From positions 1 through 64,000 of the IMG/VR virus record IMGVR_UViG_3300040856_003274: 64,000 bases of DNA; one strand, written 5' to 3'. The notes beneath the pieces were generated by a model. The model was not told the origin of the DNA. It searched no databases and saw only the letters and a program-made list of their open reading frames with translations. The stretch comes from a virus. Shown in pieces: positions 36,411-53,268 of the stretch (the first letter of the stretch is position 1; the number at the start of each line of letters is the position of its first letter). Both the position numbers and the translations under genes were made by a program.

Positions 36411-37478
36411 TCACCTTCTCTTAGAAGCTATTTTCTTAACACCTTTGATTAAGTTATTTTCTAGAAGAGTCGGGCTTATATACCTTTTCCAAAAGTATGG
36501 TGTGAACACTGTCTCGAAGTTAAAAGAGCGGTCATGGTGGCTAATTTGTATTTCCTTAAGGGGACGTTGAAGACCCCAAGGTAAAAAAAGAATTACGTAT
36601 TTGGTTGTATGCTGGGCGAGAGGATCTTCTAAAAGGATTTTTATCTTAAGAGTTTGTTTTAAAACGGGGGATACAATCTCATAAGTACGAGATCGGGTTG
36701 TACTTCTAGAGAGCGTAGCTTTCCACATGTTGGGTTTAGGGGGGTCGCCCCACATCACTTCAATAGGGCTCTCGTCAGAGGCGATTTTTGTGCTACCGCT
36801 CCTTGGCTTTATCCTTATTACGCTACTTATTTCTTTCCAACCCTCACGGCTTTTAACCTTTTCAAACCATGCTTCTGCGGCATGAGTTAAGGTGGCTCCT
36901 GCATTGAACTCAAGCAACTCTGAATAGTAGTAGACCTGTAACTCCCACAGGTAGCTCTCTCTATCCATTGTGTGTATCTGAACCTTTAAGTATTTAGTAC
37001 CGCCTACATTTTTTCGGAAGTCTTTCGCGGTTATCCTTATCGGGCGCTCTATTAGTGGGCTATCTACGGTAAGGCTGAGTTCGTATTCGTCGTAAGAGGC
37101 TTTCCATATATTAGGTTTGGGTGGGTTTCCCCATTGGAGCTCAATCTTAGAAGAAGCGACTTTGTTAGGTGTCTTAAGCTCGTTGTGCTTCACTAGCATT
37201 CTTTTAACGGTGCTCCAAAACGCATGGGAGAGCACCGCTTCTCCATCATCAAGGTCTTCTGTAGGCGCATAGAGACTTTCTTTCCAACTGCCCTGAGCGC
37301 CATAAACAGCAACGAGAGAGATACCCTCTGAGGTACTTTTTTCAAGGGTAATAAAAATAGTCTCATGCCGAAGCGCGGGAGATTGGATGGTATAGGCTTT
37401 CCATCCAGTTTTTAGCTCTCTTACGGTAGCTTTCCACATGTTGGGTTTAGGGGGGTCGCCCCACATCACTCTTAACAT
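36411..37478 (-). CDS. WGxPPKPNxWK-module repeat protein A (3 modules)
   Basis: three motif copies separated by KVAS/KIAS; ends KIASKRR; AGGAG RBS. Confidence 0.85.
   Translation of the reverse strand: MLRVMWGDPPKPNMWKATVRELKTGWKAYTIQSPALRHETIFITLEKSTSEGISLVAVYGAQGSWKESLYAPTEDLDDGEAVLSHAFWSTVKRMLVKHNELKTPNKVASSKIELQWGNPPKPNIWKASYDEYELSLTVDSPLIERPIRITAKDFRKNVGGTKYLKVQIHTMDRESYLWELQVYYYSELLEFNAGATLTHAAEAWFEKVKSREGWKEISSVIRIKPRSGSTKIASDESPIEVMWGDPPKPNMWKATLSRSTTRSRTYEIVSPVLKQTLKIKILLEDPLAQHTTKYVILFLPWGLQRPLKEIQISHHDRSFNFETVFTPYFWKRYISPTLLENNLIKGVKKIASKRR
36715..36759. repeat. 45-bp exact direct repeat (second copy at 37426-37470) encoding VMWGDPPKPNMWKAT
   Basis: GTAGCTTTCCACATGTTGGGTTTAGGGGGGTCGCCCCACATCACT present twice. 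Confidence 0.85.
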
Positions 37479-37535
37479 TAGTATTCTCCTTATGCTTAAG
37501 TAAAGTTAACACTTCTGAGTTATATGGAGATTATC

Positions 37536-38507
37536 ATGTCCCAACTAGCGTTACTAAAAGCCCTCCCAAACATCATCCTGGGGCTTTGGATGTCTTTCTT
37601 AAGTTATAAAGCCTACGTGTATTACGGCGACTTAACAGCCCAAAAAACTATCTTGAGGCAGACTCAAGGGCTCTTGAATGAGAAAGAGCGAGAGATGCAA
37701 AAGGAGCACCGAGAGATAGGAGTGTTAAAGTCTAAACTGGTCAAAGACCTCAAAAGCCTAGAAGAAGATGCTTCCCGTCTTAGGCAAATGTATGGAGAAA
37801 GCTCTGAGAAGCTAGACAAGTTTATTGCGAAGCACAACCTGAGGCTCAAATCCTATCAGCGAGCTAACTTCTCCCTGAGGCAGAGGATTGAGTCTGCTAA
37901 GTCTAAACCAAAGGTGACTGTGGTTACCAAAGCGGGGTCGTGTGAAGAAAACACCGAGGTGTATTATCGTTATGAGGAAGAGAATGGGCGCGTAATCTTA
38001 GAGACTCCCAACTGCCTTAAGAATGGTGAAGAGGTCTTGACTCTTAACCAGTCCTTTGTGGTGTATGGAGAGGTTTTCCAACAAGATGGCGGGGCGCTTG
38101 AGGTATCCAGGTTAGTCTTAAAAGAGGTAGACCCTGACAACCCTAAGATCATTCTCGCAAAACCAAAGTTAGTAACAGGTGATTTTAAGTACCATCCTTT
38201 TACGCCTAAACCTAAGCCTGCTAAGCCCTTCAACATAGTGGCTGGAGTCGGGTTTGATAAAGACGGGTTCGCTAACGTCTCTTTAGGTATCTCTCCGCTC
38301 AGGTATCGCCAAGGGTTCTTATCTCTGTCCTATCAAATGTTTGAGCAAGCTAAGGGGATTGATAGGCACGCGATCTCAGCGCGAGTCGGCTGGCGACCTA
38401 AACTCTTTGAGGGAGATTTAAACTTCGGAGTCTCTTTGGGCGTTGGCACACCTGTAACAAGGCTAATCCCTCAATATACTCTGTCTTTTGATTTCTTTGT
38501 TTGGTGA
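37536..38507 (+). CDS. membrane-anchored coiled-coil protein with beta-strand C-terminus (spanin-like candidate)
   Basis: N-terminal TM, long coiled coil, amphipathic strands ending YTLSFDFFVW. Confidence 0.55.
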   Translation: MSQLALLKALPNIILGLWMSFLSYKAYVYYGDLTAQKTILRQTQGLLNEKEREMQKEHREIGVLKSKLVKDLKSLEEDASRLRQMYGESSEKLDKFIAKHNLRLKSYQRANFSLRQRIESAKSKPKVTVVTKAGSCEENTEVYYRYEEENGRVILETPNCLKNGEEVLTLNQSFVVYGEVFQQDGGALEVSRLVLKEVDPDNPKIILAKPKLVTGDFKYHPFTPKPKPAKPFNIVAGVGFDKDGFANVSLGISPLRYRQGFLSLSYQMFEQAKGIDRHAISARVGWRPKLFEGDLNFGVSLGVGTPVTRLIPQYTLSFDFFVW

Positions 38508-38520
38508 GAGGCAAGTTGTT

Positions 38521-39612
38521 ATGGGTGATCTAAAAGCGCAGTGGGGTAATCCTCCTAAACCTAATATGTGGAAAGTGAGAGAGTACAACCACTCTTCAGA
38601 CAAAGACTACGTGGCTGTTGTCTCTCCTATCTTAAAGAACAACGGTGAGTTTTACGTAATGCGTAACGAAAAGCGAGAGTGGGAAATACGTTACCATGAC
38701 CGCTTCCACATATATATCTCCATTAAGCGTCTGAAAGAAACTCACAGCTTTTTAGAAGTGCGACATTACTTCTTAAGCTCTGTATGCTGGTCAAAAGATA
38801 TCGGGCCGTTCTTAAGAGACAACCGAAACTTCTTCGCAGACGGCTTTTCGACAAAAGTCGCGTCTTCTGTCCTTAAGGCAAAGAAGATTAAGCATCGAGC
38901 TATGTGGGGTGACCCTCCTAAGCCTAACATGTGGAAGGTCGATTTTAGGTGGTATGCTGGAGGTGGCGAGGAGTTTTCTTATTGCTCGGTAGAGTCCCCT
39001 GTCTTAAAAGAGGGGTCTTTTTTCCAGTTGATGTTCGACACCTCAAGTAAAAAATGGACTATTCAATACAGCGGGTCTACTACTTTCCACGTCCACACCT
39101 TTCATAATACAAATAAATTTTTAGAGGCGCGGGATATCTTTTTAAGTCGAAAGGGCTGGAAGATTATCAAGACCTTTGCGCTTATCGCGGGGACAGATTT
39201 CTTCCGCACTAAGGTAGCGTCGTCTTCTTCTAAACTCGAAGCGCATTGGGGTACTCCAGCCAAACCTAATATGTGGAAAGTTGAGGAGTACGAGGAGTTT
39301 GTAGAGGTCACTTCTCCTGTGTTAGGAGACGGTTCTCTTTTGTTAACCTCTCCTGCATATAATGGCACAATCAAATATCACATAGAGTATCACAATAAAA
39401 AACGACATCTTCGGAAACTAGTGATGGAGGTAGACAACTATCCGTATGAGAATGCTTTAAAATGGTTCTTAGGGAGTATGTTTTGGGATAGGAAGTTAAA
39501 AGAGTGGGCGAGTAAGCAACCTTTCCCAGTATTCACAAAAAATAAGATAGCTTCCTCTAACTTGCGGGTGATGTGGGGCAACCCCGTCAAATCTAATCTA
39601 TGGAAGGTCTGA
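38521..39612 (+). CDS. WGxPPKPNxWK-module repeat protein B (3 modules plus terminal stub)
   Basis: motifs at 38542, 38905, 39247, 39574; KVAS/KIAS linkers; GAGAGG RBS. Confidence 0.85.
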   Translation: MGDLKAQWGNPPKPNMWKVREYNHSSDKDYVAVVSPILKNNGEFYVMRNEKREWEIRYHDRFHIYISIKRLKETHSFLEVRHYFLSSVCWSKDIGPFLRDNRNFFADGFSTKVASSVLKAKKIKHRAMWGDPPKPNMWKVDFRWYAGGGEEFSYCSVESPVLKEGSFFQLMFDTSSKKWTIQYSGSTTFHVHTFHNTNKFLEARDIFLSRKGWKIIKTFALIAGTDFFRTKVASSSSKLEAHWGTPAKPNMWKVEEYEEFVEVTSPVLGDGSLLLTSPAYNGTIKYHIEYHNKKRHLRKLVMEVDNYPYENALKWFLGSMFWDRKLKEWASKQPFPVFTKNKIASSNLRVMWGNPVKSNLWKV

Positions 39613-39684
39613 GGACGAGCTTAGGATTTCTTTATTCCACTTATACCCGCCTTTAGGTAGGATCTACCTAACAAGGAGAAAAAA

Positions 39685-40170
39685 ATGAGAAGAACAGCTT
39701 CAGAAATACTATCTGACATTAAGGACCTTAAGATCAGAGTCGCTAACTTAAATTATTCCTCTATGGTTACGATTTCATCGGAAGCGCGGAAGCTCCTCGA
39801 CCATGCGCGTACTATACCTGATCTTGCTGCCTCGAATAAGAGTGATCTAGGGACTCTGATGCACATCGGGTTGCCCCCTATAATAACGAGGTTGCATAGA
39901 GCACTTAAGGCTAAGGCTAAGGGTGGTGAGTCCGTGACAGAAATGGATTTAGAGTTGCTTCAGTTCTGTGTGTATCTACACAACGAGCTGGCAAATGGCG
40001 GGGCGTGGACTCTTGAACCTGCACCTGTCAATCAGCAGTTGAACCCTAGAGCTTTTGATGAGGTTTCAGGGGCTCGGTCAGGTTGGGTAGTTGAGACTAT
40101 CGTTCCTAGCATCCCACAAGTAAGCGCACTTAGGGGGCTAGTCAAAGTGACAGCGCGTCGTCCTCAATAG
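39685..40170 (+). CDS. hypothetical protein with MRRTASEIL leader
   Basis: AGGAG RBS, upstream TATTCCACTTATA, leader shared with 17400-17777. Confidence 0.75.
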   Translation: MRRTASEILSDIKDLKIRVANLNYSSMVTISSEARKLLDHARTIPDLAASNKSDLGTLMHIGLPPIITRLHRALKAKAKGGESVTEMDLELLQFCVYLHNELANGGAWTLEPAPVNQQLNPRAFDEVSGARSGWVVETIVPSIPQVSALRGLVKVTARRPQ

Positions 40171-40214
40171 TTGTTCACCTTTCTATTCGTTCATTAAGAG
40201 CGACACTAGAAAAG

Positions 40215-40508
40215 CTAAAGACTCTTGAGTAGGTGAGGAGGGATCTCTTTCCCATAGATTTTCCTGAGTCTAAAAGATACGTCCTTGTGCGCGTCTTTAT
40301 ACTCAGTAAAGAATAAAGGGGCTCTTTGTTCCCATGCCTTGTAGCCGATTTCTTTGACGAGCTCAGCGATCTTGTAAGCATCTACTTGGTGTATGCAATC
40401 TTTAATCGCCTCAGAGCCTTTTACGGGCTCTAATGTTACAAACAGCATGAAGATTTGATTAGCCTGCTTGTATCTCTTAGCTACTCTGCGTGCTTGCTCT
40501 TTTCGCAT
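40215..40508 (-). CDS. hypothetical protein (RVAKRYKQAN leader)
   Basis: 97-aa ORF with GAGAGG RBS. Confidence 0.6.
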   Translation of the reverse strand: MRKEQARRVAKRYKQANQIFMLFVTLEPVKGSEAIKDCIHQVDAYKIAELVKEIGYKAWEQRAPLFFTEYKDAHKDVSFRLRKIYGKEIPPHLLKSL

Positions 40509-40629
40509 AGACTTCTAGCCTCTCAGTCATGGTGTTTATCAAAAGCTAATATCAGAGGTTTAGTGTTTGACAAGCGTAATCCCTTCCGATGTTATGAGCT
40601 TTATCAAGCCACGTCGGAAAGGAAAAAAA

Positions 40630-41214
40630 ATGGCGCTCACCTTTTATTACTCTACCGTTAATGCGGGTAAGACCGCGAAGCTCATCTTAGACGCGCACGC
40701 GCACAAGAGTCGAGATGTTAAGACTCTTGTCTTGCTACCTGAGATCGCGCTCTCAAGAGAAAACGGTAATACTCTCTCATCAAGAGCAGGGCTTTCTTGT
40801 GAGATTACATCTTTGCCTGACGGTGGTTGCCCTCACAGCCTTGTGAGCGATCTTAATGAGCTACCTGAAGTGGTCTTCATTGACGAGGCGCAGTTTCTCA
40901 CCCCAGCTCAGATTAGAGGTCTTTGTAATATTACAGACCTCCTTAACATCCCTGTATTTGCTTTTGGACTACGTACTAACTTTTACGGTGAGCCTTTTGA
41001 GGGGAGCATTTATCTCATGGCATGGGCAGATAGGATCGTAGAGATACCTACACCGTCAACGAGAGAAAAGCATGTTTTCGCGACAATGAACATTAGAGTG
41101 TGTCCTGAGACTAAAGAGCGCGTATCAGGAGAGAACGGGATTGAGGTAGGCTTTAACTTTGAGCCTGTAAGCAGAAGGTATTTTAATCTTAATGAGAGAT
41201 GGGAAGAAAAATGA
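40630..41214 (+). CDS. tdk: thymidine kinase
   Basis: YSTVNAGKT P-loop, SRAGL, DEAQF, GLRTNF.GEPFEGS. Confidence 0.9.
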   Translation: MALTFYYSTVNAGKTAKLILDAHAHKSRDVKTLVLLPEIALSRENGNTLSSRAGLSCEITSLPDGGCPHSLVSDLNELPEVVFIDEAQFLTPAQIRGLCNITDLLNIPVFAFGLRTNFYGEPFEGSIYLMAWADRIVEIPTPSTREKHVFATMNIRVCPETKERVSGENGIEVGFNFEPVSRRYFNLNERWEEK

Positions 41215-41699
41215 TTGCACTAATCGCCGCTGTCGGCGCAAAACTAGGTATCGGCTTTAATGGTCAGCTCCCTTGGGGGCATATTAAGAAAGACATGTCG
41301 CACTTTAAGCGTGTGACAAAAAACAGCACGCTCATTATGGGACGCGCTACCTACGAGTCGATAGGCAGACCCCTCCCTGATAGAGAGATGTTTATTGTGT
41401 CGAGCACATTAGAGCCTAATGACCATATTCGAGTTTTTAAGGATATACCCACAGCATTAGAGGCTTGTAAGACCGAAGACATATTCTTTGCTGGTGGTGT
41501 CCGTATTTACGAGGAGGGTGCTAAATACGCAGATAGGATATACCTTACTATGCTCTCTTCAGAAGCTGAGGCAGACACTTACTTCCCTAAGCAAATACTT
41601 ACTCCTGAAGAGTGGGTAGTCATAGATCATTCGCATGATTATGACTCCGACTCAGATGTGAGGCTCAGCTTCTTCACATTTGAGCGAGAGGTGGCTTAA
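41211..41699 (+). CDS. folA: dihydrofolate reductase
   Basis: IAAV...IG..GQLPW...DM.HFK..T....IMGRATYESI..PLP.R...GG..IY...DTYFP. Confidence 0.95.
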   Translation: MIALIAAVGAKLGIGFNGQLPWGHIKKDMSHFKRVTKNSTLIMGRATYESIGRPLPDREMFIVSSTLEPNDHIRVFKDIPTALEACKTEDIFFAGGVRIYEEGAKYADRIYLTMLSSEAEADTYFPKQILTPEEWVVIDHSHDYDSDSDVRLSFFTFEREVA

Positions 41700-41702
41700 G
41701 GT

Positions 41703-42497
41703 ATGTCAGAGCAAGGTTACATTAACTTAGCTAAGAAAGTGCTCTCAGAGGGCGAATACCGCGCTGATCGAACAGGTGTGGGTATTTATTCTCTCTTCGG
41801 TGAGCAAGTCAAGTATGATCTCACAGAAGGCTTCCCGTTGCTCACCTCAAAGAAAGTCTACTTTAAAGGTGTAGCATACGAGCTGATTTGGTTTTTGAGC
41901 GGAGATACTAATATTAAATTTCTGCAAGAAAACAAAGTGCGGATATGGGACGAGTGGGCTGACTCCGAAGGTAATTTAGGGCCTGTCTATGGCAAGCAGT
42001 GGAGAGATTGGAGCGGTGTAGATCAGATCGCTAATCTTATAGAAGAGCTTAAGTCTAATCCGACTTCGCGTAGGCATCTAGTGAGCGCATGGAATGTTAG
42101 TGAGTTAGCAGAAATGGCGCTCCCCCCTTGCCACATGACCTTTCAGTTTTATGTGCGCCGAGGAGAGTATTTAGACTGCCAGCTTTATCAGAGGTCTGCT
42201 GATCTTTTCTTAGGCGTACCTTTCAACATCGCCTCCTACGCGCTCTTAACTCATGTGATCGCTAAGCTAACAGGACTTAAAGCTGGCGTGTTTACGCATA
42301 CAATGGGTGACGTACATATCTACTCCAATCACCTAGATCAGATTAAGGAACAGATTAGAAGATTTGAGAACGAGCCTAGACCCCTCCCTCAGATAGAGCT
42401 TCAGCCGATTGATAACATAGACTCATTTTGCTACGGAGACATAAGAATAGCGGGGTATGATCCTCACCCTCCTATCAAAGGTACGGTGGCGGTCTAA
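41703..42497 (+). CDS. thyA: thymidylate synthase
   Basis: [54 protein letters not shown]. Confidence 0.97.
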
Positions 42498-42547
42498 ATT
42501 CTATATACCTTCGATAGTCACAGACTAGTAAAAGACTAGGAGGTACT

Positions 42548-43624
42548 ATGAGACACCTGACAGCTCGACAAAGAAAATCAAAACTTAGGCTTCACTTAGA
42601 CACTCACGTTAGTAGGCTTGTGCGGGAGTTTAGAAGTCATCTTGATATGTACATTATGAGCAACAAGGACGCTCTGATTAAGAGTATAGGGGATAACTTC
42701 GACTCTCGTATCTCTCCCATCATTGACTCGATCCCTAGCCATGAGACAGACAGTGATTTTTTTAGAGGCGGTGTTTATGTGTCTCTCTCTTACTTCAACT
42801 CAAGAGATCCTATCCAATCTTACTTTAAAAACGGTTACGGGGTTGAGGAGACTCTTGCTAATCTAATAGAGCAGACCACAGATCGAGGAGATTTTTCTTT
42901 AAGCGATGCTTACGACAAGTGGTTTTACTATTACAGCCCTCTCTTAGCGCGGGCATTAGGTAAGGTTAAGATACAAACTAACCCTTTCCTTGTAGATGCT
43001 TACAAAGGTAAGGCGCTTAACTTCTTCTCTCATAGCGCACTCTCTGCCTTTTCGATTTTAAGCCACCTGCTGAGATTTTTTAAAGCACCTGGACTTGTGG
43101 TAGAGGCGGCTCTTGTTGCGCTCTTCGCACCTAAGAAGAAAGCTGTAGAGAGACACCTTAATATTAAGACTGCTTCTGTAAAGGTAGCCCAGCGATACCT
43201 AATCGCTAAGGCTCTCGAAGATGACGAGAAGCGAGACATCTATAACAGGTGGCATAAGCTCATCAACATGACACAGAAAGAGCTAGAGGATTGGGGGGAC
43301 AACCCTGAGCGCCTAAAAGCCTCTCTCAACAGGCAGAGAGCCAAAGAGGAAGGGGGCATACAGAGCGGTTATGACTCTTTCCGAAGAATAGTGCGTCGTA
43401 AGTCGAAGCCCTTCAAAGATTGGTCGCCACAAGACTTCCAAAACGCTCAACAAGAGATAAACTTTAACACTCGTATGCTTGGGAACAACCCGGGTCAACC
43501 TGTGAACAAAGACATTATGAAATCTAAGTGGGAGATTAGCCTGCTTAACTGGGGGCATGACCCGTCTAAGAAAAGCTCACCCTCATATGGTAAATGGAAG
43601 GCATGGAAAGATGACCTTGAATGA
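42548..43624 (+). CDS. two-domain protein with C-terminal DUF3140-like domain after a KTAS/KVAQRY linker
   Basis: INMT..ELEDW...SG..S...W.ISLLNWGHDP. Confidence 0.65.
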   Translation: MRHLTARQRKSKLRLHLDTHVSRLVREFRSHLDMYIMSNKDALIKSIGDNFDSRISPIIDSIPSHETDSDFFRGGVYVSLSYFNSRDPIQSYFKNGYGVEETLANLIEQTTDRGDFSLSDAYDKWFYYYSPLLARALGKVKIQTNPFLVDAYKGKALNFFSHSALSAFSILSHLLRFFKAPGLVVEAALVALFAPKKKAVERHLNIKTASVKVAQRYLIAKALEDDEKRDIYNRWHKLINMTQKELEDWGDNPERLKASLNRQRAKEEGGIQSGYDSFRRIVRRKSKPFKDWSPQDFQNAQQEINFNTRMLGNNPGQPVNKDIMKSKWEISLLNWGHDPSKKSSPSYGKWKAWKDDLE

Positions 43625-43994
43625 GTATATCGAAAACTTTTACGAGCCCCGTGTAATCTTATCGCACAGCGAGACGGATTTTCCTGTGACTTATAACTTT
43701 CGAGACATCACGTTAGACCTCCTGAAAGATTACGATAAGATTGTCTTTTCGACAAAGCGTATGCGCACGCTGTCTGATGACGCTGTGTGGCAAGCGCAGG
43801 CTCTTCGTAAAGAGATTGAGGGTACACAAATAATAACTGACCGCTACGGACTTGCGCTTGTTTCTTCAAACCCGCAGAAGGTGGTTATGGGTTTCCTTGA
43901 CCTTATCTCCACAAGAGGGGAGTACGTAGATTACTTAAACAGCCTAAAAGCTCCGACCAAAGCTGTAAACGCCCTATTTTTTGATAAACCTTGA
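43611..43994 (+). CDS. hypothetical protein
   Basis: GGAAAG before the ATG at 43611. Confidence 0.6.
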   Translation: MTLNEYIENFYEPRVILSHSETDFPVTYNFRDITLDLLKDYDKIVFSTKRMRTLSDDAVWQAQALRKEIEGTQIITDRYGLALVSSNPQKVVMGFLDLISTRGEYVDYLNSLKAPTKAVNALFFDKP

Positions 43995-44020
43995 ACCCGC
44001 ATAGCTAGGAGGAAGTAGCT

Positions 44021-44671
44021 TTGATTACCTACAAAAACAAGAATAGACGGTTATTCTCCGCAGATGATAATGAGAATGTGATCCTAATCTCCGCACCTCA
44101 GCAGAGTGGGGGAGGTGAGCCTAAGGCAAGAGAGATTGTGACGGAGGGGACTCACATCTATTTCTTCCAAGACGTGACCACGGAGAGTGTACAAGATTTA
44201 GTGGTGACTCTTAGAAGGATGACCGCGAGCATCTTAGAGTTTACGACGGATTTAGAGCTCCCTGAACCCCCTCCTATCCATCTCCACATCAACACCAACG
44301 GCGGGGACGCTTTCGCTGGTTTTTCAGCATCTTTCTCTATCGCTTCTAACCCGATCCCTGTTTACACCTACGTAGACGGTCAAGTTGCTTCCGCAGGTAC
44401 GTTTATGTCTCTCGCGGGCGCGAAGCGGTTCATGCAACCTCAGTCCTTCATGCTTATCCATCAAGTCTCATCGGGTGTGTGGGGTACTTATGCTGACATT
44501 GTGGACGAGAAGGAGAGCCTTGACCGCATCATGGAGAAGGCTAGAGAGCTCTACAAGAAATACACTAAGATTAGCGATGAGAGGCTCGATGATCTCCTTA
44601 ACGGCAACCTTTGGCTTAACGCAGAAGAGTGCTTAGAGCTGGGCTTCGTTGATGAGGTACAAAAAAGTTAG
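44021..44671 (+). CDS. ClpP-like serine protease
   Basis: HINTNGG, VASAGT (catalytic Ser), MLIHQ (His), WL.AEECLELGFVD. Confidence 0.88.
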   Translation: MITYKNKNRRLFSADDNENVILISAPQQSGGGEPKAREIVTEGTHIYFFQDVTTESVQDLVVTLRRMTASILEFTTDLELPEPPPIHLHINTNGGDAFAGFSASFSIASNPIPVYTYVDGQVASAGTFMSLAGAKRFMQPQSFMLIHQVSSGVWGTYADIVDEKESLDRIMEKARELYKKYTKISDERLDDLLNGNLWLNAEECLELGFVDEVQKS

Positions 44672-44727
44672 TGTAGCTTTTGGGAGAGGTAGTGTATAGG
44701 GGACACTCTTAAGAAAGGAGTCCCAAT

Positions 44728-45321
44728 ATGCTACCGCCTATCGAGGCTATCAAAAACTTTGTCTTAATGACTCAACTCTTGTCTTCAAGCTGGGGTGTAC
44801 CTCCTCAGCAGATTGATGACGCACAATGTTACCTCTTTGAGCTAAGCCATGCTATCGCTCATTACTCTGAGGACAAAAACCAACAACTCATGTATTTGAC
44901 TATTGCGGCTCAGGAGTCAAAGTTTAGCTTTGACCACCCAAACGACGAGCCCTCAGTTAACCCGAAGTCAGGTGCTTGTGGCCCTTATCAAATCGTCCCG
45001 AAGTGGGCTGTACCTAAAGATTTACCTGCTGATTGCAACGAGCTTCACGACCCTTATGACGGCACTTGGAGACTCCGAGAGGCGCTCTCAGCCATAGCAA
45101 AGATGGTGAAGCCTAAGAATGTGATGTGCTATTATGCTACAGGTGACCTTGAGTGTACCCATGAGAAGACTCCTTACTCACGCGTACACTCAAGACTAAA
45201 GGAGAAAATACGCAGAGAACGTGCTAAGATAGATAAATACGGCAAGTACGCTTTAAAGATCGTAAGACTCACGCTTCAAAACAAGTGTTCGCGTGGGCAA
45301 AATTCAGAGCCACTCAGGTAA
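44728..45321 (+). CDS. SLT-type lytic transglycosylase-like protein
   Basis: IAAQESKF (catalytic Glu) and SGACGPYQI motif. Confidence 0.7.
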   Translation: MLPPIEAIKNFVLMTQLLSSSWGVPPQQIDDAQCYLFELSHAIAHYSEDKNQQLMYLTIAAQESKFSFDHPNDEPSVNPKSGACGPYQIVPKWAVPKDLPADCNELHDPYDGTWRLREALSAIAKMVKPKNVMCYYATGDLECTHEKTPYSRVHSRLKEKIRRERAKIDKYGKYALKIVRLTLQNKCSRGQNSEPLR

Positions 45322-46143
45322 TATCTGAGCCTCTAAATCTAAAGCGTAAAGCAAGTCAGCAGTGCGCTTCCCATAGCCTTTATTTAAGACTTTCTTAGGG
45401 TCGTTGACAAAATCATGTGACCCTAGCTTCGACGTGTACTTGTCAAAGCTCCAAATGTTCGTCTGAGTCTTAATGTCTAAAGGTACAAAGTTAAAGTCCT
45501 TACAGACGACTTTCCGCTCTCCTTTAGAGAAGCCTTCAAGTAGCGGATTGAGCTTCCTTGTCATCTTGATGTCCATGTTGCGGTTAATGTCATCAGGCCA
45601 CAGCTTCCAGTCTGCTTTATCAAGAAGAGCTCTACTCACACATCTACCTAGACCTAAAGTTACACCGTAGTTGGAGTGACCTTTAGGGTAATAGAAGTGG
45701 ATCATCTTCTTTGTAGAGGACTCAAAGAAGTAAATGTCTTGTATACCAATGTACGGGTATCCTTGAAATAGGAACCTAGCGTAGAGAGCGATCAGATCAA
45801 CAGGGAGCAAGTCATCGGTGTCTACAAACAGCACCGCGTCTATCTCTACTTGCCAATCTCTAATCTTTTCGAGCGCCTGATTACGTTTAGCAGACACGGG
45901 AGTATTAGGGCGCTCCATATAGTTGTAGTTGTGCCTCGATGCCAAGGAACGACTGTACTCACCTTCAGACCCAACCGCGAAGAGATAGAGCCCTATATTT
46001 TTCTTTAAGAGCTCTTTTTGAACATGGTTAAACCACTTAAATGTAAAGTCCGTCAGCACTTGCCTGCGCCACATCGTGGTAAGTATTGCGATGTTGGTTT
46101 TTTGAGGCGCAGGGTTCTGTTCGGCGTGAGTATATTCAATCAT
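45304..46143 (-). CDS. GT-A fold glycosyltransferase-like protein
   Basis: ILTTMWRR...KRNQAL...VDTDDLL...LGLGR. Confidence 0.65.
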   Translation of the reverse strand: MIEYTHAEQNPAPQKTNIAILTTMWRRQVLTDFTFKWFNHVQKELLKKNIGLYLFAVGSEGEYSRSLASRHNYNYMERPNTPVSAKRNQALEKIRDWQVEIDAVLFVDTDDLLPVDLIALYARFLFQGYPYIGIQDIYFFESSTKKMIHFYYPKGHSNYGVTLGLGRCVSRALLDKADWKLWPDDINRNMDIKMTRKLNPLLEGFSKGERKVVCKDFNFVPLDIKTQTNIWSFDKYTSKLGSHDFVNDPKKVLNKGYGKRTADLLYALDLEAQILPEWL

Positions 46144-46226
46144 GTCTTCGCCTTTATAAAAAATTGGGTGGTTTCTGAGATTTAAAGTGTAGATAGGTTG
46201 ACCCTATCACAATATGGAGAAAAGAA

Positions 46227-46610
46227 ATGGGTAACAACTTCCTCACCATCCAAAGACCTGTCGAGATCACAGAAGAGAGGTTTGAAGACCTTCTTTGCAA
46301 CGCTCTCGAAGGCGGAGTCTCTTACTGGGCTGACATCGACACGTCGATCCACCCTCCTCAAGAAGGCGATGAGAACATCGAGTTTCCTCACCTCGCGTTC
46401 ACTCATCCTAAGTACGTCATTCATGTCGTTGACCGTGAAGATGATGGGAACACCTTTAGGTTGAAGCTCGAAGACCTTAAGAAGGGTTTTGAGATTTGGG
46501 CTAAAGACTGTCCTTATCACTTTGAGAATTTTCTCAAAGAGGAAGATGACGCGATCACCGCAGATACTTTCTTCCAATGTTGTGTTTTTGGAGAGGTCAT
46601 TTACGGGTAG
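46227..46610 (+). CDS. conserved phage-type hypothetical protein
   Basis: ALEGGVSYWA...DAITAD..FQ...FGEVIYG; GGAG RBS. Confidence 0.75.
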   Translation: MGNNFLTIQRPVEITEERFEDLLCNALEGGVSYWADIDTSIHPPQEGDENIEFPHLAFTHPKYVIHVVDREDDGNTFRLKLEDLKKGFEIWAKDCPYHFENFLKEEDDAITADTFFQCCVFGEVIYG

Positions 46611-48168
46611 TCTTAGTCCTCTTAGTCCTCTTAGTGGACTTGGTACGCTTTGTCCTCTTAGTGGACTTGGTACGCTTTGTCCTCTTAGTGGACTTGGTAG
46701 CCTTAGTCCTCTTAGTGGACTTGGTGGACTTGGTAGTCTTAGTCCTCTTGGTGGACTTGGTAGTCTTAGTCCTCTTGGTCGCTTTTGGCGAGCCCCCTGC
46801 GCTCTGCAAGGCTTTTGTCAGAAAGACCTCAGGATCAAACCTAAGCTCAGTTTTCTGTTGAGTAAGTAAATCCTCTAGGTTGTCTTCTACAGCGCCCTCA
46901 GAGAGGAAACGCAAGAGCACCTGAGGGTTGATATAAGAAGAGTAAGTAGTCTTGACGCTCCTATGGCTCAAGTCTTGTTGTGATTTAGCATACGCTCTCT
47001 GTACCGCTTCCAAAACAGCAGTTGTGATCTCTTGCTTCATCTTCTTCTTAGCGAGCGCCTTAAAAGAGCCTACTTTGACATAGAGGTCAGCCTGCTCCTC
47101 TTTAAGGCTTTCCAAGATAGATCGAGTCGCCTTGAGCTTACGGAAGTCGGTCATCCTCAACCTACGGAGTTTCTTCTTTAAATAGGTGTTGACGATGGAC
47201 TGAGTGAGTACCTTTCCGTCATCAAAGACGAAGATAAACTTGCTACCTGCATCGCTACCCCTCTTTGTGCTCACTCTCCCTACCATGTCTTTTAAGACTT
47301 TGACGATCTGAGCGTCTCTCAGCTCAGCGACGTTGACTGTTGTCCTCTTCCCCACAAACTTGAGTTGGGCGACGTTAGCCCTCACAAACTTAATGTGTTT
47401 GGGCATAAGGGTGATCGCACCAAAAGTCTCCTCATACTCATCAGTGTCTGACTTGTAAACTTGGTTACCATGCTCACCTGGGCGGATACCAGTCTCCATA
47501 AGAATTGACACAACAAGCGCCTTAATCTTAAGAGAGCTGTCTGCGCTCCTAAGGTCTTTCAAGACGCTCTTTCTAATCTTAGCGTAGTTAGCTACCAGCT
47601 CCTTCTGCACCTCGATCTTCTCGCCTAAGTTTTCAAACTTCTCCCTAAAGCGATTGTAGAGCTTCGTGATCTTACCCGATCTGTCCGTCTCAACAACAAG
47701 ACTATCAGGAAGAAACTCAAAAAACTCTTCGCCTAGCTTCGCTTTGATATTGCGTGCGCTCTTCTCATTCTCCATGTCCCTATAGTTATTCTTCATGGAC
47801 GGAGCGATGCGCTGGAGCTCATCGTCTATGCTGAGCTCCCTAAAGTGGACGTTCCTGATCACATACGCGCACGCGCTTGTGCGACTAGACGCGCCCTTGT
47901 AGCCCTCACCGATATATCTCTTAGCGAAGTTGAGGAAATCTCTCTGCGTCACAAGATGCTTAGTGAAGATACGCTCTGCTTGACTAGGGGTCTTACCGAT
48001 TTTTTTCGCCGCTTGTAAGGTTTTCTTAGCGACAGGCTTGTACTTGTTAGAGAGCGTCTTCAGCGCCCTTAGCATAGCCTGATGGTGTCTCTCCCGCGCT
48101 TTCTCGTCGCGAGTATACATACGGCTATATTCTGTCTCTTCTCTAGCTAGTAAGTCCATCATTTGCAC
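46597..48168 (-). CDS. DNA topoisomerase IB with basic repetitive tail
   Basis: TGIRPG (R), FGAITL..KH, FVGK (K), DFRK..AT (R), LSH (H), SSYINP (Y) match the topo IB catalytic pentad. Confidence 0.85.
   Translation of the reverse strand: MQMMDLLAREETEYSRMYTRDEKARERHHQAMLRALKTLSNKYKPVAKKTLQAAKKIGKTPSQAERIFTKHLVTQRDFLNFAKRYIGEGYKGASSRTSACAYVIRNVHFRELSIDDELQRIAPSMKNNYRDMENEKSARNIKAKLGEEFFEFLPDSLVVETDRSGKITKLYNRFREKFENLGEKIEVQKELVANYAKIRKSVLKDLRSADSSLKIKALVVSILMETGIRPGEHGNQVYKSDTDEYEETFGAITLMPKHIKFVRANVAQLKFVGKRTTVNVAELRDAQIVKVLKDMVGRVSTKRGSDAGSKFIFVFDDGKVLTQSIVNTYLKKKLRRLRMTDFRKLKATRSILESLKEEQADLYVKVGSFKALAKKKMKQEITTAVLEAVQRAYAKSQQDLSHRSVKTTYSSYINPQVLLRFLSEGAVEDNLEDLLTQQKTELRFDPEVFLTKALQSAGGSPKATKRTKTTKSTKRTKTTKSTKSTKRTKATKSTKRTKRTKSTKRTKRTKSTKRTKRTKTTRK
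46609..46779. repeat. 9-bp-unit coding tandem repeat (TK[R/S/T/A] tripeptides)
   Basis: CTTAGTCCT/CTTAGTGGA/CTTGGTACG/CTTTGTCCT units. Confidence 0.9.
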
Positions 48169-48203
48169 TCTCCTTTTGATGAGAGCACATTAGAGAGAGA
48201 TTA

Positions 48204-49418
48204 TTAAAACAAGCTCCCTTGTATGCCCCCTCCTGCTCTCATCTCGCCCCTGACCTCACTAAAGCGTGGTAAGTAGAAGTCGAGGCGGGGCTTCCACCCC
48301 ATATTGTCCTTGATGTATTGAGGCTCAGTCACTTCTTGCTTAGAGAAAGTCCCCCAAAAACGACATATGCTCATATAACGAACACCTCTGTTAACGTTAA
48401 GAACATAGCCGTTGTCATTTGCCTGCTTCAACACCCACCCTAAGAAATAGTACGGTAGCGTGTCTTGGTAAGGTTTAAACTCTAAGTGGTCTGCATCAAA
48501 ACCGTATCTGTTCCTAATGCTTATTCGGTTACGGAAGAGGGGGGCGTTGAGATATTCACCTCCAAAAGTCAGGAAGAATACACCCTTTTTGCGGAGGCGC
48601 TTCCATATAAGCTGGAGGAGGTCATACGAGTTAGAGAAAGGGTCGAGGTCTATGAAGTCATAAGTGCGCTTTGTGCTCTTAATAAACTCTATGTTGTCTC
48701 CCAAATGCCAAACCGCGCTAGGGCATCTCTGCTTACCTTCGTTATAAAACTCTTCCTTGATCTCTACTACGTCGATGTGAGCTTTAGGGAACGCTTGCCT
48801 GACAATCTCAGCAGAGTGTCCTAATCCTCCATAAGCATCTAAAGCAGACCGTATCTTAATGGGAGTGTCTTTTAGCTCCAGCTCGTTTACAAACCACTTA
48901 TGGTCTGTGGAGACTTGATTTCTCTTCTTGCCATGCCCTCGGTTGATCATCCTCTCCGAGACAAAAGTCAGCTCACAGTTTAGAGCGATAGAGATTTTCC
49001 ACAGAGGTAAGCCTGCTTCGTAGAGCTCATCGGCGCAGTCTTTGTTCCAGTTTTCTTTACTGTCGATACGGGCGCACTTAGTGTTTTTGAAAGTGTCCCC
49101 TCTAACCTTACAGATTGCGCTGATCGCCATTTGTAGGTCTTTAGGGTTACGGTTGTATTTACACACAAGGTCGAAAGAAGACATGCCTGCCTTCCAATCC
49201 GCGTAAGCGCCCTCTCGCTCAGTATTCGTCCACCGTTTTCTTGTCGGCGCGACCTTGAGCAGGTGCTCTTTCCCTGAGTACGGAATTCTATACTTATCGA
49301 GTATCTGTAAGACCAAAACTCGGCTCTCCTCTAAGATTAGGGCGTTTGAGACATCGCTTAAAAGCATAATAAACCAAGACCTGTAGCCTGTATAGCCTTT
49401 TAGAGAGGATGCTACCAT
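48204..49418 (-). CDS. HTH-like N-terminus fused to a SAM-dependent methyltransferase
   Basis: LDAYGGLG (motif I), VVEI, DNIEF, YDFIDLDPF; start uncertain. Confidence 0.7.
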   Translation of the reverse strand: MVASSLKGYTGYRSWFIMLLSDVSNALILEESRVLVLQILDKYRIPYSGKEHLLKVAPTRKRWTNTEREGAYADWKAGMSSFDLVCKYNRNPKDLQMAISAICKVRGDTFKNTKCARIDSKENWNKDCADELYEAGLPLWKISIALNCELTFVSERMINRGHGKKRNQVSTDHKWFVNELELKDTPIKIRSALDAYGGLGHSAEIVRQAFPKAHIDVVEIKEEFYNEGKQRCPSAVWHLGDNIEFIKSTKRTYDFIDLDPFSNSYDLLQLIWKRLRKKGVFFLTFGGEYLNAPLFRNRISIRNRYGFDADHLEFKPYQDTLPYYFLGWVLKQANDNGYVLNVNRGVRYMSICRFWGTFSKQEVTEPQYIKDNMGWKPRLDFYLPRFSEVRGEMRAGGGIQGSLF

Positions 49419-49638
49419 GAAGAGAATAACTCTAATACTCCTAATCTCGTTAGGCGCTTGCGACGAGAGCGCCCAGCTTGAAGAACCTAAGACACTCTGC
49501 GAACAAGTGTCTGATAAACTCTACGAGTGTATCGGAGGCAGAGTACCTATTACCTACTGCTCACAAGAAACTGCGGATTATATACTCAACGCACCCTGTG
49601 AGGATGTGCTTGAGTTTATTAGAGGCTCTCAGCGGTAA
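49417..49638 (+). CDS. small Cys-rich lipoprotein
   Basis: MKR + hydrophobic + LGAC lipobox; GAGGA RBS. Confidence 0.7.
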   Translation: MKRITLILLISLGACDESAQLEEPKTLCEQVSDKLYECIGGRVPITYCSQETADYILNAPCEDVLEFIRGSQR

Positions 49639-52115
49639 TACCAAATATTAGGCTTAGCAGAAGTACCCCACATAGCTTTTAAGCCCTCAGAGGAAGCCAC
49701 CTTACGTCTCAGGTGAATATGAGGCTCTATTTTGCGCCAAAATGCTGTGCTCTTGAGAAGATACTCTATCTTGTGCTGTGGAGCATTTATATCGAACGCA
49801 TAGAGCTTTACATCAGCCTTACCTGGAGCGCCGTGATAGATCACATTGCCGTATTCAGCATAGTAAACAATGACCCCTACCATAAGAGGTGAGGTAATCG
49901 CCCAATTCCCGTAATCGTTAACATTGACTTTCCAAACGTTAGGCTTAGGGGGAGTACCCCATTTGAGCTCAATCTTTTTCTTATTTGGTGACGCTATGCT
50001 AGCAACCTTAGGGATAGTGAGATTAATCTTCCCTGACTGGATAGCAGGCTTAATGACATTCTTCCAAAGTGCAGGATGCGCCATTAGCTCTACGCTAAGC
50101 TTAAGACTATGCTTATCTAAGAGTTTGAGCGTAACTACTTCCCCGCCTCTCTCCATATACTCTAGCTTAGAGTAAGAGCCTTGCTTAAACGTGAGGAAGA
50201 TGCTCCCAACCATCGCAGGTGAGTGTACCACGTAGCCCTCTTCACCTCTACCCGTAAACTGTAGGAGCTTGTTCTCTACCACCTTCCACATATTAGGTTT
50301 AGGAGGGTCGCCCCATTGGAGCTTAATGTCTGTCGGAGGCGCAAGCCAGTCATTCGCGATCTTCATGGATTTCCACCCGCCAGTCATTTTTTCAGGATGC
50401 CTTTTCTTAAACAGTTTTACTAACTCCCAACCCTTAGGGCTCAAATAAAAATCAACGGCGCTCTGAAAGTCATCCTTAGTCCTGTGTCTTGAGAGGACTT
50501 CTCTCCCATAGCGGCTCTGATAACTGAGCTCCCAAGCACCTTGCCACCTGCCGATGCTAAACACGCTCTTATCAAACGCTGAAGAGATGATTAAACCAAT
50601 AGGTTGGCCTGCCTTTTCAGGGTTAGGGCTGTAGACTATCTTAGTCTTCCACATGTTAGGTTTAGGAGGATCGCCCCACTGAACCGTATAACTTCCGCTG
50701 TCAGAAGCTACTTTGGTATTAAACGCTTCTATCGAGAAGTTGCCTAGGGCGCTCTTTATCTGAGCCCAACCCTTTTCGCTCAAGAAGAAGTCTAGCGCCT
50801 CTTCAAAGTTAACACGCTCGCTCAGAAAACTATGTAAATCTTCATATGGGTCGCCGTCGTCTCCTTCAAAAATGATGTACCACCGACCACGAAACTTAGA
50901 CAAAGTAATAGATGTGTGGGGGAGGAGAACAGGAGAAGTTACCACTGCTTGCCCGTCATTCTCGCTAATCTTAATTACAGACACCTTCCACAGGTTAGGC
51001 TTAGGAGGGTCACCCCACATAGCTTTTAAGCCGTTAGAGGAAGCCACCTTGGTTTTAAAGATACCACCCTTCTTTCGCATAAAATCTTTAATCCAACTCC
51101 AGCCCTCTTGACTTAAGAAACGATCTCTCGCCCTCTCAAAAGTGTTAGCTTCAAACTCTATAATATGGTGCTCTTCGTTGTAAGGATTAAAAGATACCTC
51201 CCATGTACCCTCCGCTAGCTCCGTGAGCGTAATGTTCGACATATTTCCGCCGTAAAGATTAGGGCAAGTGACCTCCATCCACTCCCTCTCCCGATAAGCA
51301 CTATCACGATAAGTACCCGTTTTGACTTTCCACATGTTAGGTTTAGGCGGGTCACCCCACATAACTTTTAAGCCACTAGAGGAAGCTACCCTTGTTTTGA
51401 AGACCTGCTTTCCACCTCTCGATGACCTTATCGCTAACCAACGACCTATCATGTCCCAACCCTTTTCGCTTAAGAAAATAGATAACGCTTTCTCAAAGTC
51501 AGGAGCCGAAAACGTACCTATCCTTTCATAAACGTCGTCCATGCTAGGGGAATACTCTATCGACCACTTATCTAATCCTTCGAGCCACCGTAAATAAAAA
51601 GAAGTGTCTTCCCCCTCAAGGAGAGGCGACTCAACAACCGCTTGCCCTCCCCCAAGATCAGATCTGTCTACCCAAACCTTCCACGCATTAGGCTTAGGCG
51701 GATTACCCCAACGAGGCTTAAGATTAGGCGCAATATCCATAGATGCCACCTTCGAGCCCCCATGCGTTAACTTGATCCTCCCGTCAAAAATCTTAGGCTC
51801 GACGTAGGCTTTATAAAACTCATGGGACGTGATCTCGCTAAGAGGCATATTAGGATGGTTTCTAGGCTCTAAAGAGATCACGTCTGAGTAGTAATCCTCA
51901 ACGTATCCGCTACAAGCAGAGGCTCGCACCTTAGGGTCATGTACGATCCTAATGTAACCCTTTATCAAAGGGGAGCTCACTCGAAGCGTCTCGCTAATAA
52001 CAATGTGTCCAGGAGGCTTTAATTCTTGCTCCACTTTCCAAATGTTAGGCTTAGGGGGATCTCCCCATTGAAACTTAATGTCGTGTCTCGGCTTGAGCTT
52101 AGTATCATCCATCAT
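49629..52115 (-). CDS. WGxPPKPNxWK-module repeat protein C (7 modules plus terminal stub)
   Basis: eight motif copies; linkers KVASM, RVASS, KVASS, KVASD, KIAND, KVASI, KVASS; GAGGAG RBS before 52115. Confidence 0.88.
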   Translation of the reverse strand: MMDDTKLKPRHDIKFQWGDPPKPNIWKVEQELKPPGHIVISETLRVSSPLIKGYIRIVHDPKVRASACSGYVEDYYSDVISLEPRNHPNMPLSEITSHEFYKAYVEPKIFDGRIKLTHGGSKVASMDIAPNLKPRWGNPPKPNAWKVWVDRSDLGGGQAVVESPLLEGEDTSFYLRWLEGLDKWSIEYSPSMDDVYERIGTFSAPDFEKALSIFLSEKGWDMIGRWLAIRSSRGGKQVFKTRVASSSGLKVMWGDPPKPNMWKVKTGTYRDSAYREREWMEVTCPNLYGGNMSNITLTELAEGTWEVSFNPYNEEHHIIEFEANTFERARDRFLSQEGWSWIKDFMRKKGGIFKTKVASSNGLKAMWGDPPKPNLWKVSVIKISENDGQAVVTSPVLLPHTSITLSKFRGRWYIIFEGDDGDPYEDLHSFLSERVNFEEALDFFLSEKGWAQIKSALGNFSIEAFNTKVASDSGSYTVQWGDPPKPNMWKTKIVYSPNPEKAGQPIGLIISSAFDKSVFSIGRWQGAWELSYQSRYGREVLSRHRTKDDFQSAVDFYLSPKGWELVKLFKKRHPEKMTGGWKSMKIANDWLAPPTDIKLQWGDPPKPNMWKVVENKLLQFTGRGEEGYVVHSPAMVGSIFLTFKQGSYSKLEYMERGGEVVTLKLLDKHSLKLSVELMAHPALWKNVIKPAIQSGKINLTIPKVASIASPNKKKIELKWGTPPKPNVWKVNVNDYGNWAITSPLMVGVIVYYAEYGNVIYHGAPGKADVKLYAFDINAPQHKIEYLLKSTAFWRKIEPHIHLRRKVASSEGLKAMWGTSAKPNIWYYR

Positions 52116-52566: not shown

Positions 52567-53268
52567 ATGATTGACAACCTCAAAATATCTATACACGGGT
52601 CATGCGTCACTAGAGATGCCTTCAACTACCCTCCCTTCGGTAAAGAACATATCCATTACTATCAGGCTCGGTCTTCTCTCTGTACAAAACATCTCCCCCC
52701 CGCTCAACCTCCCCAAGCCCTCTTAGACGCGCTCTCTAATAAGTTTAAAACAAAAATGCTCACCTTTGACCTCTCAAGAGCACCTATACCAAACCAATAC
52801 CCTGTCATCTTCGACCTCATAGATGAACGCTTTGAGGTATGTGAGTATCAAGGTGTCTCATACACCCAGTCTGAGAACCCACAAGGGATCACACCCTCCA
52901 TCATACACCCAAAACACTCTCAAGAGAGATTAGACCTCTTCTCTCAAGGTGTCTCTCACATATATCACCGACTCAAAGAAACTCCCGTTCTACTCCATAA
53001 AGCCCATTACGCTACACAATACCGTTGCTCTGTAGACTCTACCCTTAAACCCCTGCCTACAGATAAAGAACACATCAAAGCTATGAACGCATACCTCGAC
53101 ACCCTACACGACGCTTTCTTACAAGCTGTCCCACACGCTATCCCCATAGAGGTAGACCAGTCCCTTAGAGTCGCTAACCCAAACCACATATGGGGACTCG
53201 CACCCTATCACTACATAGATGACTATTACGCGTCCTTACAAAGGCTCATACTCGACGCTCTAAAATAA
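52567..53268 (+). CDS. DUF6270-like protein (polysaccharide-associated SGNH-like)
   Basis: IHGSCVTRD, Y.ARSS, DLIDERF, H.WG.APYHY..DYY. Confidence 0.7.
   Translation: MIDNLKISIHGSCVTRDAFNYPPFGKEHIHYYQARSSLCTKHLPPAQPPQALLDALSNKFKTKMLTFDLSRAPIPNQYPVIFDLIDERFEVCEYQGVSYTQSENPQGITPSIIHPKHSQERLDLFSQGVSHIYHRLKETPVLLHKAHYATQYRCSVDSTLKPLPTDKEHIKAMNAYLDTLHDAFLQAVPHAIPIEVDQSLRVANPNHIWGLAPYHYIDDYYASLQRLILDALK

Follow-up and report, generated by a model that had tools for sequence, protein, structure and literature searches.

What do phage genes encode that are built entirely from diverged copies of one small domain, joined end to end by a four-residue motif that hardly varies? The question is raised by three genes (A, B and C) located at positions 36411-37478 (minus strand), 38521-39612 (plus strand) and 49629-52115 (minus strand) of the window analyzed here, which comprises the first 64 kb of the 168,266-bp IMG/VR virus record IMGVR_UViG_3300040856_003274. 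The record occurs in estuary and marine metagenomes and is about 40% complete according to CheckV. A giant tail sheath of 1894 amino acids (aa) is encoded at window positions 29298-34982 (plus strand), and its closest GenBank match, with 42% identity, is from the 485-kb uncultured phage LR745208; the record is thus a fragment of a large myophage. The best explanation of genes A to C and their homologues is that they encode polyprotein precursors, a reading to which we assign an even chance.

In the initial annotation, made from the sequence alone, three open reading frames with three, four and eight copies of a WGxPPKPNxWK motif were described, and the pattern WG...K.N.W indeed matched three times in gene A, four times in gene B and eight times in gene C. 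The 15 matches in the window compare with 0.005 expected from 200 shuffles. As also described, they represent 13 full modules and two C-terminal stubs, with a measured motif spacing of 97-127 aa. A second motif, [K/R][V/I]A[S/N] (hereafter KVAS or the joint), had been reported at every junction; it closes every full module, as checked by translation at 13 of 13 sites, and is found 5-24 residues upstream of 12 of the 15 WG motifs, the remaining three being the first motif of each gene. The genes, modules and joints of the window are as follows, with stubs and joints placed by translation.

36411-37478, minus strand: array gene A (355 aa), three modules, ends KIAS plus KRR; identical to database protein P0015
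37134-37463, minus strand: module A1 (110 aa)
36753-37133, minus strand: module A2 (127 aa)
36414-36752, minus strand: module A3 (113 aa)
37152-37163, minus strand: KVAS joint A1/A2
36777-36788, minus strand: KIAS joint A2/A3
36423-36434, minus strand: terminal KIAS of gene A
38521-39612, plus strand: array gene B (363 aa from the ATG at 38521), three modules and a stub; equals P0009
38542-38904, plus strand: module B1 (121 aa)
38905-39246, plus strand: module B2 (114 aa)
39247-39573, plus strand: module B3 (109 aa)
39574-39612, plus strand: stub B4, degenerate motif WGNPVKSNLWKV, then stop
38854-38865, plus strand: KVAS joint B1/B2
39211-39222, plus strand: KVAS joint B2/B3
39544-39555, plus strand: KIAS joint B3/stub
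49629-52115, minus strand: array gene C (828 aa), seven modules and a stub; equals P0001
51711-52067, minus strand: module C1 (119 aa)
51360-51710, minus strand: module C2 (117 aa)
51018-51359, minus strand: module C3 (114 aa), modelled singly
50679-51017, minus strand: module C4 (113 aa)
50316-50678, minus strand: module C5 (121 aa)
49962-50315, minus strand: module C6 (118 aa)
49671-49961, minus strand: module C7 (97 aa)
49629-49670, minus strand: stub C8, WGTSAKPNIWYYR, then stop; a related contig has 930 additional bases exactly here
51741-51752, minus strand: KVAS joint C1/C2
51381-51392, minus strand: RVAS joint C2/C3
51039-51050, minus strand: KVAS joint C3/C4, of low modelling confidence in the two-module model described below
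50703-50714, minus strand: KVAS joint C4/C5
50352-50363, minus strand: KIAN joint C5/C6
49998-50009, minus strand: KVAS joint C6/C7
49692-49703, minus strand: KVAS joint C7/stub

The three genes are as the initial annotation described them, but they form only part of the family. Five further array genes (D to H) are located on the same contig beyond the window, at contig positions 85365-90332 and 160278-165382, giving a total of 38 motifs in eight genes that occupy 14.7 kb, or 8.7% of the contig DNA, and are spread over four scattered loci. Genes A to C carry WG modules only, whereas D, H and several homologues add unrelated domains. Gene H contains at least one extra module with a degenerate motif, as well as a foreign domain.

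An alignment of 35 modules has a mean column identity of 22%. Residues W1, G2, P4, K6, N8 and W10 of the WG motif and the Ala of KVAS are invariant, while the S-P of a VxSP element and the Ser of KVAS are nearly so; the weak skeleton noted previously, with VxSP and a later S..xW helix, is visible in the same alignment. The module C3 model built on it with AlphaFold2 (AF2) has a mean predicted local distance difference test score (pLDDT) of 81.5 and a predicted template modelling score (pTM) of 0.72, and confidently shows a single domain in which five beta strands precede two helices. The modules are predominantly basic, their median isoelectric point (pI) being 9.3, but a few are acidic. When two modules with their flanks were modelled, using 72 two-module segments as alignment, two well-folded globules were obtained whose mutual orientation is not fixed (pTM 0.56). 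These two models, together with the existence of a free single-module gene (P0034, 111 aa), indicate that the modules are autonomous, and the data support that a single alpha/beta domain of ~110 aa, not described before, is repeated here in strongly diverged copies.

The initial annotation did not recognize the domain, and our searches gave the same picture. Only sub-threshold matches were obtained in Pfam-A, no match with E <0.02 was found among the PHROGs, and Foldseek searches of the module model against PDB and BFVD returned nothing at E <=0.001. The best hit of a VIA fold search had a Z score of 6.0, which is inside the noise range stated for the tool, the best template modelling score in the ESM Atlas was ~0.5, to unnamed clusters, and an atlas feature search with the WG module yielded no usable match. 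The modules thus lack a convincing match to any known repeat family, and they are modelled as separate globules and not as one continuous structure. A profile search of 1.84 billion cluster representatives identified 39 WG proteins only, several of which are this contig's own; nearly all are multi-module proteins, and both motifs are present in all 39. Gene C gave no tblastn match in 50,697 GenBank phage records, while a pattern scan of IMG/VR added one further contig, G001 (105 kb, 27% complete), with at least seven modules. A search of the literature, both for the motif and for C39 peptidases in connection with phage polyproteins, retrieved no description of the WG family or its motif.

The joints resemble the cleavage sites of polyproteins. 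The initial annotation had made their conservation in homologues a touchstone of its proposal, and across the family 88 of 88 internal junctions carry one, with Lys in 81 and Arg in seven, Val in 71, Ile in 13 and Leu in four, Ala always, and Ser in 78, Asn in five and Thr in two. The distance from the Lys of the joint to the next Trp is usually 10 residues (range 9-35). In the two-module model, the residues with pLDDT <50 (7-12, 122-126 and 234-241) are exactly the three KVAS motifs, the only other part of low pLDDT being the first three residues of the construct. KVAS is thus an invariant motif inside a segment that is modelled as disordered.

The joint is not confined to borders between WG modules. 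The N-terminal domain of gene D is separated from its module by KYAS, and the joint precedes the C-terminal domains that follow the last module in gene H, P0033, P0026, P0038, P0007 and P0024. In gene H and in the G001 homologue, a foreign KKRKxNPKS domain is bracketed by two KVAS sites. N-terminal leaders may also carry the motif, as RVAT in gene G, KIAS in P0024 and RKLAS in the array of contig L022, and array proteins that close with a module stop 2-14 residues past KxAS, never directly at it. A conserved short site is therefore found at every domain boundary, boundaries between unrelated domains included. The heterologous domains fused to the arrays have no match in Pfam.

Conservation of both motifs is a property of the peptide. 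Among the 38 copies on the contig, the WG motif uses GGC, GGT, GGA and GGG for Gly, CCN for Pro, AAA and AAG for Lys, and AAC and AAT for Asn, and the KVAS codons are likewise free at synonymous sites (GCN for Ala, TCN or AGY for Ser). The free variation of synonymous positions in both motifs shows that selection acts on the peptide and not on the DNA, and a recombination hinge at the DNA level is thereby dismissed as a general explanation of the motif. A single exact repeat of 45 bp was observed, between window positions 36715-36759 and 37426-37470 in the motif regions of modules A3 and A1 only; the bodies of these modules are unrelated, and the repeat suggests that gene A recently underwent internal conversion or recombination. 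Translation starting internally at the Val codon of the joint was also considered and dismissed, as this codon is mostly GTA and is GTG in only four of 38 copies.

Comparison with relatives shows that joints and gene boundaries replace each other. The related protein P0020 fuses modules of types E5 and F1 through a normal KVAS linker, and a stop codon and another start occupy the same place in the present contig. The KKRKxNPKS domain, which is bracketed by joints in gene H, is a free-standing gene in L022 and starts there with MATKAKKRK. Natural N-terminal leaders are 5-9 aa long, mostly 7 (MSDLKAM-WG, MGNLKAQ-WG), and the commonest length is that of the remnant expected from a cut between Ala and Ser at the commonest spacing. 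Gene boundaries and KVAS joints are thus interchangeable in evolution, which is expected if the end products are separate units.

The initial annotation had also suggested that module number and order be compared among related genomes, and both were found to differ. In the syntenic 45-kb contig L006, neighboring genes are 77-100% identical to those of the window (tail sheath 95%, ClpP 97%, thymidylate synthase 91%), whereas the counterpart of array B has four modules with 32-42% identity and the counterpart of array C five modules with 34-52% identity. A one-module gene replaces gene A and the adjacent GlmM gene. When module bodies are clustered, genes B and C read [4,13,1] and [14,.,2,.,5,6,7], respectively, while P0002 reads [4,13,2,5,6] and other relatives [2,4,7,6,7], [27,2,.,1], [1,1,1] and [14,1,1]. 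Judged from the sequences, this order reflects cassette shuffling among relatives. The 930 extra bases at the stub of gene C were found in a contig from another sample, and the stubs are accordingly best explained as remnants of lost modules.

A candidate enzyme is encoded next to one of the arrays outside the window. The gene at contig position 159717-160271 (plus strand; L010:6717-7271) encodes a 184-aa protein that matches Peptidase_C39_2 (PF13529) with 39.9 bits at a gathering cut-off of 24 and, more weakly, C70/AvrRpt2 and C39. Its stop codon is located 6 nucleotides (nt) before array gene G. The same pair is found in L013 and L022, with peptidases of 99% and 90% identity, respectively. 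The array of L022 is quite different and consists of the RKLAS-bearing leader, a pair of modules and a C-terminal domain of the H type. Gln24, Cys30, His116 and Asp133 are invariant in 71 peptidase homologues. More than 45 homologues share the domain end ...EITPDGRQ[V/I]MAS, which is followed by an unrelated variable extension, and the short form found beside arrays stops exactly at the [V/I]MAS position (...TQAMR-stop). In L016, genes flanking the peptidase start with MAS-NQKENKMSR, the sequence that follows IMAS in the fused form. The border of the peptidase domain thus itself carries a hydrophobic-Ala-Ser site, which can be fused or split as the array joints are, and this is the best argument that the peptidase cuts such sites. 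The domain occurs alone or with non-transporter extensions and was found inside none of the array proteins; the 27%-complete G001 fragment contains no peptidase gene. On this comparative sequence evidence, the C39-like peptidase is a tentative candidate for the enzyme that cuts the arrays, and we rate its assignment somewhat short of an even chance.

In each module, a conserved patch at the N-terminus (WGxPPKPNxWK with S-P close by) is followed by a body that is hypervariable, and K-[V/I]-A-S is located in the flexible tail at the C-terminus. From this architecture and its variation among relatives we infer a scheme of cleavage, scissile bond, enzyme and role. The arrays would be cut within or beside K-V-A-S, most simply between Ala and Ser, to give dozens of separate, mostly basic proteins of 12-14 kDa, and foreign domains between KVAS sites would be released as well. 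The likeliest enzyme would be the phage's own conserved, papain-like C39_2 cysteine peptidase, acting in trans, and the invariant WG patch may serve all modules as a shared handle, be it for docking or targeting or as an exosite for the protease. That the arrays are cleaved at all, by whichever enzyme, seems to us even to slightly probable. The cleavable polyproteins proposed in the initial annotation thus gain from joints that are conserved, disordered in the model and present at the borders of unrelated domains, while neither the enzymes nor the destination proposed there find support. Modules turn over fast, which suggests that the repertoire has to deal with host or competitor targets that vary; an anti-defense role may be hinted at by the hypervariability and the cassette turnover of the sequences. 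It may even be that this marine clade of huge phages produces dozens of small hypervariable binders from a few homotypic polyprotein genes, that the peptidase excises each of them at K-V-A|S and that the WG handle takes them to one shared place, for example a host hub or the inside of the virion. Shuffling of cassettes at the joints would then keep renewing the binders in an arms race against host defenses, and the set would be the equivalent, in phages, of a diversified effector library. We consider this combination of steps unlikely as a whole.

Several findings weigh against polyprotein processing or against the proposed enzyme. In the genome apart from the arrays, [KR][VI]AS occurs hardly more often than expected (six observed versus 3.6 expected), and N-terminal [VIM]AS shows no clear excess, so the data do not support a KxAS signature common to the proteome. 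Binding or modification would account equally well for a motif that is conserved and disordered. Cleavage by classical C39 peptidases takes place after Gly-Gly and not at Ala-Ser. The family of the 184-aa protein is also far larger than that of its putative substrates, with more than 319 clusters (63-99% identity, contigs of up to 267 kb) versus 39 WG proteins, and adjacency of peptidase and array was observed in three contigs only, which are fairly close relatives. In other relatives the peptidase gene is located just after the tail sheath, in a conserved structural block, and must then serve another, older purpose. Among solved structures, the closest relative of the peptidase is PeiR, a pseudomurein endoisopeptidase (PDB 8z4h; E 2e-5), and PF13529 is catalogued as a lysin domain in phages of Gram-positive hosts (PMC8223927).

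Part of this evidence also fits arrays that remain uncleaved as beads on a string, in which K-V-A-S would be a linker with another job, for example a docking peptide or a modification site. A variable number of domains is also typical of uncleaved repeat proteins, the modelled disorder of KVAS resembles that of short binding motifs, K/R-x-x-S resembles a basophilic kinase site, and the C39-like peptidase may be a lysin. A plain linker, however, need not persist at C-termini, where only 2-14 residues follow, or in N-terminal leaders, and it leaves unexplained the gene starts and stops at the joint as well as the foreign domains that are bracketed by the motif; we regard uncleaved arrays as rather unlikely. 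Modules that form a structural repeat, as one continuous fiber or decoration protein of the virion, would be in keeping with the distance of 1.4 kb between gene A and the giant tail-sheath gene and with the common occurrence of tandem small domains in fibers. Such a structure is hardly credible given that the two-module model has no fixed interface (pTM 0.56 versus 0.72 for the single module), that modules are reshuffled, deleted and split into separate genes, that the eight genes are located at four scattered loci, and that no match to immunoglobulin-like or fiber folds was found.

The remaining alternatives accept cleavage and assign it to another agent. In the initial annotation, processing by prohead proteases of the gp21 or gp175 type and packaging in the capsid were put forward, and a head-maturation protease could in principle cut the arrays in the prohead, so that modules would be packaged and injected as internal proteins like T4 IPI or the phiKZ inner-body proteins; its enzyme would be the ClpP-like protease at window positions 44021-44671 or an unseen prohead protease. 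The mostly basic modules (median pI 9.3), a very basic 620-aa protein with four KVAS-like sites (0.2 expected) in the putative structural region at 7209-9071, and the position of the C39-like peptidase in the tail or structural block of relatives are all consistent with this, and the ClpP-family protease, located between arrays B and C, is 97% conserved with intact active-site Ser and His motifs. Array genes, however, are found among nucleotide-metabolism and other non-structural genes, KVAS breaks the gp21 (L/I-x-E) and gp175 (S/A/G-x-E) rules, having no conserved Glu at P1 or elsewhere in the joint, and no S77 (PF03420) or S78 (PF04586) protease was matched in the ~40%-complete contig. Prohead processing, together with either of these enzymes, is therefore improbable, and this part of the earlier proposal is not upheld. 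Alternatively, the modules might cleave themselves, with K6 of WGxPPKPN and the Ser of VxSP as a Ser-Lys dyad that cuts the upstream Ala-Ser in cis, which would explain the invariant motif in otherwise hypervariable domains. Ser-Lys dyads are found in LexA, signal peptidase and birnavirus VP4, and a small P1 residue and Ala|Ser cuts are typical of such proteases. K6 is invariant and S32 nearly so, and in the strand order of the model S32 comes after strand 2, the partner of strand 1, whose start is directly behind W10, so the conserved residues should cluster. Terminal KVAS sites without a downstream module are conserved too, however, the distance from site to motif varies from 9 to 35 residues, and no fold similarity to any Ser-Lys protease was found, which makes self-cleavage very improbable. 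Processing in trans at the joints remains the reading that we prefer.

KVAS-like motifs were also observed in proteins without WG modules. The 620-aa protein at window positions 7209-9071 (plus strand) contains four [KR][VL]AS sequences versus 0.2 expected (p about 5e-5); its center is extremely basic, its C-terminal part is hydrophobic and rich in Gly, Ala and Ser, and it matches neither Pfam nor the PHROGs. It is a candidate for an internal or ejection protein and might be cut by the same protease. In contig G001, an 817-aa, mostly helical protein (L003:10938-13391, plus strand) is encoded directly downstream of a two-module WG gene and represents a second kind of KVAS-punctuated protein, with seven K[VL]A[SN] versus 0.31 expected (p about 5e-8). 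In addition, an element in which K-x-A-S leads into an amphipathic helix, either (D/E)-I-V-x-R-W-L or (K/R)-V-A-x-R-Y-L, recurs in unrelated proteins of the phage clade at N-termini, C-termini or domain borders, as exemplified by MNKMAS-DIVDRWL, KKKAS-EEVVNRWL, KTAS-VKVAQRYL, KTAS-LRVACRHL and KMAS-RVAQRYM. In the window it is found at the N-terminus of the product of 4238-4765 (minus strand), at residues ~243-256 of that of 7209-9071 (plus strand) and at residues ~207-222 of that of 42548-43624 (plus strand), and it is also present in the relatives L024 and L026 and in peptidase extensions. This element may be a shared processing or targeting peptide.

Some genes are located beside the arrays in more than one contig. 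A 327-aa protein encoded between genes A and B (37524-38507, plus strand) combines a membrane helix at the N-terminus with a coiled coil and a C-terminal part rich in beta structure, whose last residues, FDFFVW, are similar to the ending of outer-membrane barrels, and is conserved beside WG arrays in the contigs behind L004, L005 and L006/L007. A 404-aa protein with weak methyltransferase-like matches (48204-49418, minus strand) starts with MVASS, which is kept in syntenic L006 and resembles a KVASS joint. A DUF6270 gene adjoins a WG array in two rather different contigs (window 52567-53268, plus strand, and L014:9281-9961), and the pairing may represent a conserved association. Two auxiliary metabolic genes are also adjacent to arrays: a GlmM-type phosphoglucosamine mutase (35024-36406, minus strand) 4 nt downstream of gene A, and a full-length ATP-dependent phosphoenolpyruvate carboxykinase (contig position 90329-91966, minus strand) adjoining gene F. 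The type IB topoisomerase at 46597-48168 (minus strand) carries a C-terminal repeat tail of K, T, S and R (TKRTKSTK...), and the repeat DNA gives rise to spurious long open reading frames on the opposite strand.

To our knowledge, tailed phages generally produce one protein per gene, and proteolytic maturation mainly concerns head proteins. If the arrays are indeed polyprotein precursors, polyprotein expression would be added to phage biology as a new mode of gene expression for tailed phages, along with a new domain family. The peptidase, which is shared by hundreds of uncultivated large phages, might in that case also have a novel specificity (hydrophobic-Ala|Ser). The large and rapidly renewed set of small proteins would then provide candidates for functions in host interaction or counter-defense.

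The closest described concept is that of the polyvalent proteins of phages and conjugative elements (Iyer, Burroughs, Anand, de Souza, Aravind 2017; PMC5512222). These are likewise long multi-domain proteins of mobile elements with extensive mosaicism, thought to be delivered or processed into separate effector domains, and peptidases have been proposed to release them. They consist, however, of different and mostly enzymatic domains, usually with a zincin-like peptidase in cis, whereas WG arrays repeat one non-enzymatic-looking domain in up to ~8 copies with an invariant joint, and the papain-like candidate is a separate gene that would act in trans. The prohead proteases gp21 of T4 and gp175 of phiKZ require Glu at P1, and T4 IPI is an anti-restriction protein. 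The internal proteins of T4 and the inner-body proteins of phiKZ resemble the WG modules as small, fast-evolving phage proteins with short maturation motifs, which are presumed ones in the case of the WG arrays, but they are encoded by single-domain genes, carry an N-terminal targeting peptide and are cut after Glu by a serine prohead protease. WG arrays are tandem, with K-V-A-S lacking Glu, and no such protease was found in the contig.

The 184-aa neighbor of gene G resembles C39 and C39_2 peptidases in passing the PF13529 cut-off, in keeping Cys and His and in its match to PeiR (E 2e-5), but differs from C39 systems by having no ABC (ATP-binding cassette) transporter, no Gly-Gly substrate motif and no wall-binding domain. 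The double-glycine leaders of bacteriocins are recognized by Gly-Gly, Gly-Ala or Gly-Ser at P2-P1 and fusion of the peptidase to an ABC exporter, and the joints contain no Gly-Gly. Among eukaryotes, the nematode polyprotein allergens are homotypic tandem polyproteins. Another such case is profilaggrin, which is processed to filaggrin (PMC2113300), and large DNA viruses are represented by the polyproteins pp220 and pp62 of African swine fever virus (ASFV; PMC10308890). All of these share with the WG arrays repeated or strung units and short conserved linkers, which are cut by a dedicated protease in the known systems and would be cut likewise here. Their folds and sites are unrelated to those of the WG family, and the units of filaggrin are near-identical, compared with ~22% identity among WG modules.

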